From the sequence record PZ386971.1: 64,000 nt of DNA; one strand, written 5' to 3'. Positions 42,416 through 45,241 of this stretch are shown here, in pieces (the first letter of the stretch is position 1; every line of letters starts with the position of its first letter). The translations under genes and the position numbers were made by a program. This DNA comes from a phage. The notes under the pieces are model-generated. The model saw nothing but the letters and a program-made list of their open reading frames with translations. It was not told the DNA's origin and did no database searches.

Positions 42416-43075
42416 ATGTCCTACTCCCTGAAGGGGTTGATGAAGCGCCCCGTCCACACATTCTTTAAACCACCCGTCGTAAAGGGGATCTACCCAGCAC
42501 GAGGGCAAATCTACTACGTCAAAGGCTCCAATGGTAGCGGTAAATCCACTGTGCCGTCTCAGCTGGCGGAGAGGGATCCTCAGGCGTATGTCGTGACCCA
42601 TAATGGCAAGGTCATGCTGACTGTCTGTCCTTCGTTCAACGTGGTCTGTATCGGTAAATATGACAAGTCGAAGTCCAAGGGGGTTGATTCCCTGAAGGAC
42701 ACTGAGCAGATGTTGTTCGCGTTGTCTATTGCTGACCAACCAGAATACTTGAAATATGATGTGATTTTCGAAGGTATCATTCCATCCACATTATTGAGTT
42801 CTTGGATCCCCCGTCTGACACGCCCACCACGTGAATTGGTTGTGCTCTTTATGGACACTCCTCTTGAAACGTGTATCACCCGCGTTAAATCACGTAACGG
42901 CGGTGTGGACTTCAATGAAAGTCTGGTGGTCGAGAAGTGGGAGAGAGTTCATGACCATCGTCAACGACATAAAGACTTGTTCCCTACGGTAGCTGCGGGT
43001 ATGATGAAGTCTCACGGCCTAACGGTAGACCAGGCTGTGATGGCATTCCTCTGTCGTGATTTTGGGAGTATCTGA
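42416..43075 (+). CDS. P-loop kinase, candidate 5-hydroxymethyl-dU DNA kinase (5-HMUDK-like)
   Basis: Walker A GSNGSGKST; ATGA-coupled to thymidylate-synthase-family gene. Confidence 0.5.
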   Translation: MSYSLKGLMKRPVHTFFKPPVVKGIYPARGQIYYVKGSNGSGKSTVPSQLAERDPQAYVVTHNGKVMLTVCPSFNVVCIGKYDKSKSKGVDSLKDTEQMLFALSIADQPEYLKYDVIFEGIIPSTLLSSWIPRLTRPPRELVVLFMDTPLETCITRVKSRNGGVDFNESLVVEKWERVHDHRQRHKDLFPTVAAGMMKSHGLTVDQAVMAFLCRDFGSI

Positions 43076-44121
43076 TGGAAATCAAAGCAATTAACAACAA
43101 TGACATGCTGAAGCAGGCTGTCTTGGCTATCCGTGAATTCGGGATCGAATCTGATCCTGGTAATGCTGAAATCAATACTGATAGCACCCGCTTCCTTGAT
43201 GGTGTGACTATCACTGTTTCCGATATTCGTGACCGCTGGCTCTCCGTTGAAGGTCGCAACTCATCGGCTATCGCTGCCATCGGCGAGACCTTCTGGGTGT
43301 TGTCAGGTCGCAACGACATAAAGTTCCTGTCACGCGTATTGCCTCGCGCTGCTAACTTTTCGGATGATGGGGTAACATGGCGAGCTGCTTATGGTCCGCG
43401 TCTGTACGCCCATGGCCAGCTGGATAGCGTTATCAACCGCCTGCGCAAGAACCCAAACACTCGTCAGGCGTACCTCACCATCTATGACCCGGCTCTAGAT
43501 TCGGATGCTGGTCTGGCGAAGTTCAGCGAGAGCGGCGAAGCAAAGACTAAAGACATGGTGTGTAACCTGGCTCTGTTGTTCGCCATCGTTGAAGGTCGTC
43601 TGAACCTGACGGTCATCAATCGCTCACAGGATGTTCTGTGGGGGATGAGTTCAATCAACTTCATTGAGTTCTCTATTCTTCAGGAAGTGATTGCTCGGGT
43701 GTTAGATGTTGATGTCGGTCAGTACAAGCTCTTCTCCAACAATCTTCATTACTACAACAATGAAGTCAGCCAGAAGCAGCTGGGAAAGATCACGAAGGAC
43801 ACCAAAGTAGAAGCTGGGTTCATCAACACCATGATTCACTTCACGAACGTGACCAACCAGAACCATATCCGCAATCTGTTCACTGGTGTGCTTCATCACT
43901 GTGATATCGGTAGCCCGTGGGAAACTGTGGTTGCTCACCTGAAGGAATACGATGCGGATCGCGGCCTGATTGTACAGATGGCGTACTGTCTGCACTGCAA
44001 ACTGAACGAAAAGCTCATTAACCTGGACCTGATTCAGGATCATGGCTTGAACACCGCGCTCACCCATTCTCCGGTTGACCGCAAGATCGTTGATCCTAAG
44101 TTCCTGGAAGGTGTAGTATGA
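43075..44121 (+). CDS. thymidylate synthase-family pyrimidine hydroxymethylase (putative dUMP hydroxymethylase)
   Basis: Divergent TS-like block VCNLALLFA ... INRSQDVLWGMSSINFIEFSILQ aligns with TS catalytic Cys and QRS-D region without the canonical PCH/FNIASYA; 348 aa. Confidence 0.55.
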   Translation: MEIKAINNNDMLKQAVLAIREFGIESDPGNAEINTDSTRFLDGVTITVSDIRDRWLSVEGRNSSAIAAIGETFWVLSGRNDIKFLSRVLPRAANFSDDGVTWRAAYGPRLYAHGQLDSVINRLRKNPNTRQAYLTIYDPALDSDAGLAKFSESGEAKTKDMVCNLALLFAIVEGRLNLTVINRSQDVLWGMSSINFIEFSILQEVIARVLDVDVGQYKLFSNNLHYYNNEVSQKQLGKITKDTKVEAGFINTMIHFTNVTNQNHIRNLFTGVLHHCDIGSPWETVVAHLKEYDADRGLIVQMAYCLHCKLNEKLINLDLIQDHGLNTALTHSPVDRKIVDPKFLEGVV

Positions 44122-44687
44122 TGTACCCAAATCTTGAATTCTTTACGGGGCGCAAACGCTCCGGTAAGGACTTCTGTTTGGAGTCCCTCATCAGCTATCA
44201 CCAACTACAGGGTGATATGGACATCCAGCGCCTTTCGTTCTCAGATGAACTGCGCCGTGTGGCCAACTACATCTACCCATGGCTGCCAGCGGAGGTAGAG
44301 GATGCCGTGAAGGACGTTCCTTACGTGCACCCTGATAACCCCAAGGGCTTAACTCCACGGCAGATCTGGCTTCATCTGGGCAGCGATACGGGCTTGCGTT
44401 ACGTACAGCCTGATCTGTTCCTGGCATTCTTCAAGCGCTTCCAGCTTCCTCTGGTAGAGCAGAACCCCCACGTCCATTATATCGTGAGTGATCTGCGTAC
44501 CCCTCAGGAATATGAATGGGCGCTGAGTACGAAATGTCCTATCACCCGTATTTCAAAGGCCGACCGTGCTGGTATCATAGAGGACGATATAGAGGCTTTC
44601 ATTGACCAAATGAAAGTGGACTACGAATTCCTCAATCCATTTGATGGTTGGGAACCGTTCGTTAAATTCTACGGAGAACGTAAATGA
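44118..44687 (+). CDS. deoxynucleoside monophosphate kinase, T4 gp1-like
   Basis: GRKRSGKD P-loop and IVSDLR motif as in recalled T4 dNMP kinase. Confidence 0.7.
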   Translation: MMYPNLEFFTGRKRSGKDFCLESLISYHQLQGDMDIQRLSFSDELRRVANYIYPWLPAEVEDAVKDVPYVHPDNPKGLTPRQIWLHLGSDTGLRYVQPDLFLAFFKRFQLPLVEQNPHVHYIVSDLRTPQEYEWALSTKCPITRISKADRAGIIEDDIEAFIDQMKVDYEFLNPFDGWEPFVKFYGERK

Positions 44688-45241
44688 TCACAGCAGGACA
44701 TATCAAAAGCCTGCTCGAACTCCAAAAGGCCACCAACGTGGCCTATTTTGGGGAAGAGTGGAAGAATGTATGGAGTCAGAACGCAGTCATCAACTCTATC
44801 TATCGTGAGTGGGCAGAGTTCCTTGATGAAACCACCCGTGACTGGAAGGTCTATGGCAACGACATCAGGTTTGACCATACGAACGCAGTTTATGAACTGG
44901 TGGACGTGGTACACTTCATGTTGTGCTTCATCCTTGTGGACCGCACCAAAGGTGAGATCGAAGAAGAAGAATTTGAAGTCCTTAGCAATCGCGAATTCAC
45001 CCCATCTGCTTTGGGTGTTGTAGGGCATCGCAATGTTACGTACCGCCTTGGGCAATTCATGAACGATCCTTGCGTTGAGACTCTCATGTTCTTCCTGTCG
45101 TCTGCGTGTTCTTATATGGAGATCGACATTGAGACTTACATGCTGGCACACAAACGCAAGAACGATCGCAATCGTCTGCGTGCTTCTGGTGGTGTGGATT
45201 ACGACAAGTCCGCAGAAACCCCTCTGACCCTGGAGTTCTAA
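44684..45241 (+). CDS. dNTP pyrophosphatase, T4 gp56 (dCTPase)/MazG-like; candidate dUTP/dTTPase
   Basis: ELVDVVHFMLCF matches gp56 ELVDIFHFVLNMF block. Confidence 0.6.
   Translation: MITAGHIKSLLELQKATNVAYFGEEWKNVWSQNAVINSIYREWAEFLDETTRDWKVYGNDIRFDHTNAVYELVDVVHFMLCFILVDRTKGEIEEEEFEVLSNREFTPSALGVVGHRNVTYRLGQFMNDPCVETLMFFLSSACSYMEIDIETYMLAHKRKNDRNRLRASGGVDYDKSAETPLTLEF

Follow-up and report, generated by a model that had tools for sequence, protein, structure and literature searches.

Genes of a putative 5-(2-aminoethoxy)methyl-2'-deoxyuridine pathway in an Agtrevirus-like phage: the pre-replicative half and the DNA kinase

The stretch of phage DNA analyzed here (64,000 nucleotides of sequence record PZ386971.1, hereafter the window) carries at positions 42416..45241 four closely packed genes. 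Within the Ackermannviridae pathway to 5-(2-aminoethoxy)methyl-2'-deoxyuridine (5-NeOmdU), they very probably account for the pre-replicative half and for the opening step after replication. Judged by its sequence, the window comes from an Agtrevirus-like phage of this family. The original prediction, made from the letters of the DNA, had proposed a kinase acting on 5-hydroxymethyl-2'-deoxyuridine (5-hmdU) in DNA, a hydroxymethylase of the thymidylate-synthase (TS) family and enzymes of the T4 gp1 and gp56 types, with a deaminase encoded elsewhere that feeds the same hypermodification. This core is borne out by protein families, by orthology with Salmonella phage ViI (Vi01) and by the literature, and the four open reading frames (ORFs) lie at the coordinates originally given, all on the plus strand. 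The genes concerned are the following.

42416..43075, plus strand: P-loop kinase, 5-hydroxymethyl-dU DNA kinase (5-HMUDK, kinase 1), from PF18748 and orthology with ViI gp67
43075..44121, plus strand: predicted dUMP hydroxymethylase of the TS superfamily, with a TS fold, which would convert dUMP to 5-hmdUMP
44118..44687, plus strand: deoxynucleoside monophosphate (dNMP) kinase of the remote T4 gp1 type, with a P-loop (phrog_139, E 1.2e-47)
44684..45241, plus strand: deoxynucleoside triphosphate (dNTP) pyrophosphatase of the all-alpha dimeric-dUTPase or T4 gp56 type (PF08761, phrog_173)
61819..62325, minus strand: dCMP deaminase (PF00383, E 4.3e-16; motifs HAE, residue 72, and PCPEC, residue 99)

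In the pathway proposed for these products, the dCMP deaminase and the gp56-type pyrophosphatase would supply dUMP and trim the competing pyrimidine dNTPs, and the TS-fold enzyme would place a hydroxymethyl group on dUMP. The gp1-type kinase would convert the resulting 5-hmdUMP to 5-hmdUDP, host nucleoside diphosphate (NDP) kinase would yield the triphosphate, and the phage polymerase would incorporate 5-hmdU into DNA. There, 5-HMUDK would phosphorylate the hydroxymethyl group, after which enzymes encoded outside the window would complete the modification: a serine:DNA transferase (ADDT/aGPT-Pplase2), giving O-serinyl-thymidine, and a pyridoxal phosphate (PLP) decarboxylase, giving 5-NeOmdU at a fraction of the T positions. 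The same succession of deaminase and pyrophosphatases, hydroxymethylase, dNMP and host NDP kinases, polymerase and 5-HMUDK has been described as the general scheme for hypermodifications derived from 5-hydroxymethyluracil (hmU) (PMC8989533).

The kinase, the predicted hydroxymethylase and the nucleotide-pool enzymes

The original prediction had suggested a search of the kinase, 42416..43075, against 5-hmdU DNA kinase families, and the product scores 361 bits (E 1.7e-108) with PF18748 HMUDK_HMUD1, whose cut-off is 27, over model positions 1-195 of 196. Its residues 37-45 (42524..42550) form the Walker A motif GSNGSGKST that had been reported earlier. Over its full length of 219 aa, the protein is 87.7% identical to ViI gp67 (YP_004327432), and the gene order around the two is conserved; the start is likely ATG 42416, and not the upstream TTG 42404, because gp67 has the same start. 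Both gp67 and its paralogue gp243 phosphorylate 5-hmdU DNA in vitro (PMC8989533), and homology supports a like activity for the window's kinase, which would act on the hydroxymethyl group of 5-hmdU already in DNA.

Many GenBank records carry labels of ordinary nucleotide metabolism for such genes ('thymidylate synthase', 'thymidylate kinase', 'terminase small subunit'), according to which 43075..44121 would encode a TS that makes dTMP and 42416..43075 a thymidylate kinase or a small terminase subunit. For the kinase, this labeling finds an echo in its match to phrog_800 (E 8.9e-69), a family that bears the name 'terminase small subunit'; however, the name is a mis-annotation, since ViI and the close relative Escherichia phage vB_EcoM-ZQ1 (hereafter ZQ1) annotate a separate small terminase gene elsewhere, beside that of the large subunit. 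The curated Pfam family of the kinase and the activity of its ViI orthologue on 5-hmdU in DNA likewise speak against these labels.

The TS homologue bears on the same question. It had been described as lacking the canonical ThyA signature, and indeed VCN replaces PCH and SSINFIEFS replaces PFNIASYA. Its match to PF00303 (E 1.1e-15) is confined to model positions 54-219 of 266, leaving the final ~47 positions of the TS model without a counterpart, and its best score against the NCBIfam ThyA equivalogs is 57.9 bits, where 327 would be needed; with each of the seven models, whose cut-offs are 108-427 bits, it stays far under threshold. The comparison of ThyA with hydroxymethylases that the original prediction had called for places the protein below the ThyA cut-offs and nearest the hydroxymethylases. 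Among relatives of solved structure, MilA, a CMP 5-hydroxymethylase, ranks first (E 1.5e-17, compared with 3.6e-9 for the best TS), and the PHROG ranking runs through 3676, 5131 (the SPO1-like/CampHawk family, E 6.5e-59) and 160 (T4 gp42, E 1.5e-25). The identity with ViI gp66 is 77%; among the matches listed, the nearest phage relatives outside Ackermannviridae are the proteins of a Maribacter phage (37.5% identity), of the SPO1-like Bacillus phage CampHawk (34%) and of M6-like Pseudomonas phages (33-35%), and T4-type td shows 22% identity at E about 1e-5.

Alignment to TS reveals that the catalytic Cys163 is kept, together with Arg183, Ser184, Asp186, His225 and Tyr227. Asn195 aligns with the uracil-specifying Asn of the TS motif FNIASYA, where MilA and T4 gp42 have Asp, and Asn at this base-specifying position is common to ViI, Vibrio phage K382 and the SPO1-like CampHawk. 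Taken together, the scores unlike those of ThyA, the proximity to MilA and to SPO1-type enzymes, and Asn195 make a dUMP hydroxymethylase a well-supported prediction. In favor of a dTMP-making enzyme, the set of TS-fold residues for dUMP binding and catalysis is nevertheless complete, and no rule applied to sequence alone surely separates the 5-hmdUMP-forming from the dTMP-forming reaction. That the product would be 5-hmdUMP, rather than dTMP, is indicated by the 5-hmdU-derived base that occurs in ViI-like DNA. With the TS homologue grouping among enzymes of hmU phages, as well as the evidence on the kinase given above, it is exceedingly improbable that the two genes serve ordinary nucleotide metabolism.

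Some phages listed as ViI-like (Marshall, aagejoakim and SeKF_19) have TS homologues 92-94% identical to that of the window, but for the versions of ViI, PhaxI and PhiSH19 the identity is only 75-77%. For the adjacent kinase, by contrast, it is ~88% throughout the listed ViI-like phages of Salmonella and Escherichia. This contrast suggests that alleles of this single gene may have been exchanged between lineages.

The third and fourth genes had been likened to T4 gene 1 and gene 56, and at the level of PHROG and Pfam families, although only there, the likeness holds. The dNMP kinase shares phrog_139 with T4 gp1 (E 1.2e-47, compared with 1.8e-65 for gp1), its P-loop at residues 11-18 reads GRKRSGKD versus GVKRSGKD in gp1, and it is 90% identical to ViI gp65; no match was found for it among solved structures in the Protein Data Bank (PDB). 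The pyrophosphatase shares both phrog_173 (E 1.6e-39) and PF08761 dUTPase_2 (E 5.4e-9, 37 bits, cut-off 22.9) with T4 gp56, and its acidic metal ligands E42, E45, E71 and D74 align to those of the Campylobacter dUTPase 1w2y. It is 60% identical to ViI gp63 and would hydrolyze dUTP and/or dTTP/dCTP, thereby shaping the pyrimidine pool. Direct similarity to T4 gp1 and gp56 was also sought with BLASTP and phmmer, which gave short motif-level matches only. As to the dCMP deaminase, the claim of such a gene at 61819..62325 is substantiated by PF00383, by the HAE and PCPEC motifs and by the ZQ1 annotation; its supply of dUMP would correspond to the role described for the enzyme in hmU phages (PMC8989533). 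Directly downstream of the deaminase gene, a bPH_2 (bacterial PH-domain) protein is encoded at 61401..61808 (minus strand). NCBIfam has no specific model for the kinase, the dNMP kinase or the ACT-like protein whose gene follows the pyrophosphatase gene.

The four genes do not stand alone, and the features that delimit their surroundings are as follows.

42369..42397, plus strand: terminator-like hairpin from a terminator scan (13-bp stem, T-rich tail), at the upstream edge of the kinase block
45241..45783, plus strand: ACT-like protein of 180 aa, orthologue of ViI gp62 (PF24021 ACT_phage, E 2.3e-79), coupled on both sides, in the eight-gene block
45768..46853: uvsX, in the eight-gene block
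47167..48591: DnaB-type helicase, last gene of the eight-gene block

Overlaps of the ATGA/TAATG kind had been given for the four genes. This is correct for the junctions at 44118 and 44684 (ATGA, overlapping by 4 nt each) and at 45241 (TAATG, 1 nt), but the junction at 43075 is really TGATG, with an overlap of 1 nt. Beyond the four genes, the close packing is continued by the ACT-like gene, uvsX, an ORF of 109 aa and the DnaB-type helicase gene, the gaps along 42416..48591 being, in order, -1, -4, -4, -1, -16, -23 and +6 nt. The four genes are therefore the front part of an eight-gene block, 42416..48591. The order of genes, from an end protector and three genes without assigned function through the kinase, TS homologue, dNMP kinase, pyrophosphatase and ACT-like protein to uvsX, is identical in ViI.

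The hairpin ends 18 nt 5' of the kinase start codon, and the intergenic RNA before the kinase gene folds at -30.2 kcal/mol (z = -5.75 versus shuffles). The hairpin sequence is identical in ViI, while the equivalent position in K382 is taken by another GC hairpin together with a T7 run. Between hairpin and kinase ATG, there is no convincing sigma-70-like site, and the T4 late-promoter motif TATAAATA was not found in this interval.

From 5-hmdU in DNA to 5-NeOmdU

The steps that follow phosphorylation are known from ViI, in which O-serinyl-thymidine arises by serine transfer through gp247 and is then decarboxylated by gp226 to 5-NeOmdU (PMC8989533). The modified base accounts for ~40% of T in ViI, CBA120, CBA6 and 1.255.O (PMC5889632), and 16.4% of T is replaced by 5-NeOmdU in the Taipeivirus phiHS2 (bioRxiv 10.64898/2026.05.19.726188).

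When ViI gp160, gp226, gp243 and gp247 were compared with the window by tblastn, nothing was retrieved at E<=1e-3, nor did the ViI MazG-like protein gp161 or the polymerase find a match there. Pfam scans of ~30 window ORFs likewise gave no ADDT, PALP, radical-SAM or TET/JBP domains. In ZQ1, however, homologues of the missing enzymes are encoded: gp226 (91%), gp247 (89%, PF18724 ADDT), gp160 (82%, PF18723) and a gp243-like kinase 2 (PF18747 HMUD2). Moreover, in four related (mosaic) contigs, the gene for the same 107-aa protein as is encoded at 218..541 of the window has a PF18723 gene 6-8 kb to its left. It is thus to be expected that the phage from which the window comes carries the downstream genes as well.

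Several observations on these loci may be added. The PF18747 kinase 2 of ZQ1 (residues 236-531) lies within a coding sequence of 532 aa, 22876..24474, that is labeled 'putative homing endonuclease'; the additional N-terminal part of ~235 residues could represent a homing endonuclease that has been fused on or mis-joined, and the ZQ1 polymerase gene is likewise split in pieces. The 107-aa protein of 218..541 is small and acyl-carrier-like, with a weak PP-binding_2 match, and in related contigs its gene is adjoined by that of a 733-aa von Willebrand A domain protein.

A consolidated arrangement is found in Vibrio phage K382, where genes for kinase 2, an ADDT/gp247-like protein and an HMUDK_hel/gp160-like protein stand directly upstream of the kinase, TS homologue, dNMP kinase and pyrophosphatase run (locus 95..8943); a homologue of the PLP decarboxylase was not seen in the 12.6-kb locus. 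This arrangement shows the dispersed enterobacterial form and the clustered Vibrio form to be the same system.

Certain points weigh against the assignment of the block to the 5-NeOmdU pathway. As no downstream enzyme is encoded in the window, the identity of the end product here rests on relatives, and the literature searched contains neither a nucleoside analysis of an Agtrevirus or a Limestonevirus nor individual assays of the ViI TS homologue, dNMP kinase and pyrophosphatase. The dNMP kinase does not match Pfam DNMK PF21448, for which T4 gp1 itself scores 358 bits, and its BLASTP alignment with gp1 covers residues 6-29, the P-loop, only. Furthermore, the conserved terminator-like hairpin leaves no obvious space for a promoter before the kinase gene.

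The pathway might also run as proposed up to phosphorylated 5-hmdU and lead to a final base other than 5-NeOmdU, or it might stop at 5-hmdU. The lack of direct chemistry for Aglimvirinae phages in the searched literature would allow for this, as would the ZQ1 kinase 2, which is just 47% identical to ViI gp243 and sits inside the extended coding sequence described above, and the modified fraction of T, which differs between genera (about 40% versus 16%). Nonetheless, the two enzymes on which the nature of the product depends, the transferase and the decarboxylase, are at 89% and 91% identity to gp247 and gp226 in ZQ1, and 5-NeOmdU is still made by Vibrio phage 1.255.O, which is far more distant, and by the Taipeivirus phiHS2. 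A different end product is thus very unlikely, and 5-NeOmdU is retained as the expected base.

Neighboring genes and the installation of the final group

It had further been suggested that the unassigned neighbors, 39499..42341 and 45241..45783, encode enzymes that install the final group. This part of the original prediction is not supported: no enzyme-like fold was recognized in them, and in the closest relatives the known installers are encoded elsewhere. The candidate at 39499..40203 was rejected, being a DNA end protector of the T4 gp2 type, and the products of 40267..41016 and 41037..41312 have PHROGs of unknown function as their sole matches.

The gene next to the hairpin, 41502..42341, encodes a 279-aa protein of the ViI gp69 type, in which an acidic linker of hypervariable sequence joins the N-terminal domain to a C-terminal one that is basic and conserved. 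Its homologues are confined to this phage group. A Foldseek search of its AlphaFold2 (AF2) model, which is of moderate confidence (predicted local distance difference test, pLDDT, 70.5), gave no match in the PDB better than E 0.3. The K382 orthologue (27.6% identity, E 2e-27) lies between the HMUDK_hel gene and the kinase gene, a position that is read as conserved synteny and not as evidence of function.

The ACT-like protein is 55% identical to ViI gp62, its homologues are found in this phage group only, and BLAST detected no orthologue of it in K382. Its AF2 model has a mean pLDDT of 70.6, exceeding 80 over residues 1-100, and the N-terminal ~95 residues show a weak match to ACT/ferredoxin-like regulatory domains (1zpv, E 2e-3); by sequence, it has no match in the PDB. 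The model indicates a ligand-binding regulatory fold rather than a catalytic one.

The proposal that the products of 40267..42341 and 45241..45783 are enzymes by which the final group is put in place or tuned could draw on the 41502..42341 orthologue, which stays beside the kinase gene even in the consolidated cluster of K382, and on the translational coupling of the ACT-like gene to the pyrophosphatase gene and uvsX. In addition, the regeneration of thymidine from 5-hmdU and the partial choice of sites are still unexplained (PMC5889632). Yet 5-NeOmdU has been reconstituted in lysates by five ViI proteins that do not include these neighbors, and the purified kinase, gp247 and gp226 perform the individual steps. 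The properties of the proteins themselves argue in the same direction, namely the hypervariable linker and poor structural matches of the 279-aa protein, the regulatory nature of the ACT-like fold and the end protector at 39499..40203, as do the conserved hairpin that stands between 41502..42341 and the kinase gene and the failure of BLAST to find the ACT-like gene in K382. Such a role is therefore highly improbable, and installation by the enzymes encoded outside the window remains the preferred account. It is also unlikely, in our estimate, that the products of 41502..42341 and 45241..45783 act in thymidine regeneration, in the choice of T sites or in ligand-sensing control of the pyrimidine-pool enzymes.

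One additional protein had been drawn into the same theme.

6518..6796, plus strand: HU/IHF-family DNA-binding protein (PF00216, E 5.7e-29)

The HU-like gene is real, as PF00216 confirms; its tie to the modification pathway through the precedent of SPO1 TF1 is one of analogy only.

Source phage, prior descriptions and known systems

Megablast of 42404..45241 matched 252 phage records. The top record is ZQ1, with 98.4% DNA identity, followed by Shigella phage Ag3 (92%), SKML-39 and the Dickeya limestoneviruses in the range of 90-92%; one close-matching record carries the taxonomy Ackermannviridae; Aglimvirinae; Agtrevirus. The whole window aligns with ZQ1 45735-108269 at 94-98% DNA identity, except for a small divergent patch at ~20.5-22.2 kb. 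In that patch, window positions 20500..22157 are weakly conserved in ZQ1 or missing there, and a 202-aa ORF (21268..21876) has no Pfam match; the annotation of a relative places a 204-aa 'DNA repair protein' at this site. A 994-aa ORF, 17149..20133, also lacks any Pfam match, its ZQ1 counterpart being a hypothetical protein, and the 202-aa protein of 51557..52165 matches the PspA/IM30 membrane-stress family (E 4.9e-11), which is unusual for a phage replication region.

The gene set has been described before. Lee et al. (2018) included Ag3, SKML-39 and LIMEstone in their list of ViI-like phages with 5-HMUDK and noted that 5-HMUDK co-occurs with a dUMP hydroxymethyltransferase (PMC5889632). A 2023 paper on the Aglimvirinae phage SW16-7 annotated the same genes, a 2024 review regards the modification genes as conserved family-wide, and for each of the post-replicative components there is a curated Pfam family. 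Given this prior listing and annotation and the chemistry of relatives, the gene set is already known, and the window adds another near-identical copy of it. In practical terms, many restriction enzymes should fail to cut the DNA of this phage, and sequencing, cloning and CRISPR-based engineering may give unusual results with it, as has been reported for other Ackermannviridae.

Of the known systems, that of ViI (Lee et al. 2018 PNAS; 2021 NAR) shares with the window the genes gp67-gp66-gp65-gp63-gp62 in the same order, the same flanking genes, with the end protector upstream and uvsX downstream, and an identical hairpin before the kinase gene. The two differ in sequence divergence only, which is largest in the pyrophosphatase and the ACT-like protein (87.7/77/90/60/55% identity for gp67/gp66/gp65/gp63/gp62), although the window belongs to Aglimvirinae (Agtrevirus-like) and ViI is a Kuttervirus.

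The pathway of the Bacillus phage SPO1 type, comprising a gp29-type hydroxymethylase, a dCMP deaminase, a dTTPase/dUTPase and TF1, resembles the window in its TS-fold dUMP enzyme with Asn, the CampHawk enzyme being 34% identical to the window TS homologue and phrog_5131 the second-best family. The logic of nucleotide-pool manipulation is the same, and both encode an HU-family protein. However, SPO1 modification stops at 5-hmdU. The CampHawk locus has no kinase beside the TS gene, whereas the window holds 5-HMUDK in the same block, with the base predicted to be processed further.

Analogous to the window, the hydroxymethylcytosine pathway of T4 employs three enzyme types, encoded by genes 42, 1 and 56, with PHROGs 139 and 173 in common, and the T4 map 42-bgt-(segA)-uvsX-40-41 resembles the run from the TS homologue to uvsX, the 109-aa ORF and the DnaB-type helicase. 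Contrary to the window, T4 modifies a cytosine base (Asp in gp42 versus Asn195), and its gp1 and gp56 resemble the window proteins only remotely; T4 DNA is later glucosylated, as opposed to the phosphorylation and amino-acid transfer expected for the window type. The gp2-type end protector and gp1-type kinase genes, which are adjacent in T4, lie close together in the window.

The thymidine hypermodification clusters of Pseudomonas phage M6/PaMx11, Delftia phage PhiW-14 and Bacillus phage SP10 also pair a 5-HMUDK with a dUMP hydroxymethylase, and in the M6-like phages the kinase is 28-30% and the TS homologue 33-35% identical to those of the window. The downstream chemistry of these phages differs, leading to glycine, putrescine or glutamate adducts through radical-SAM or flavin enzymes, and in the M6-like phages the cluster is compact, unlike that of the window.

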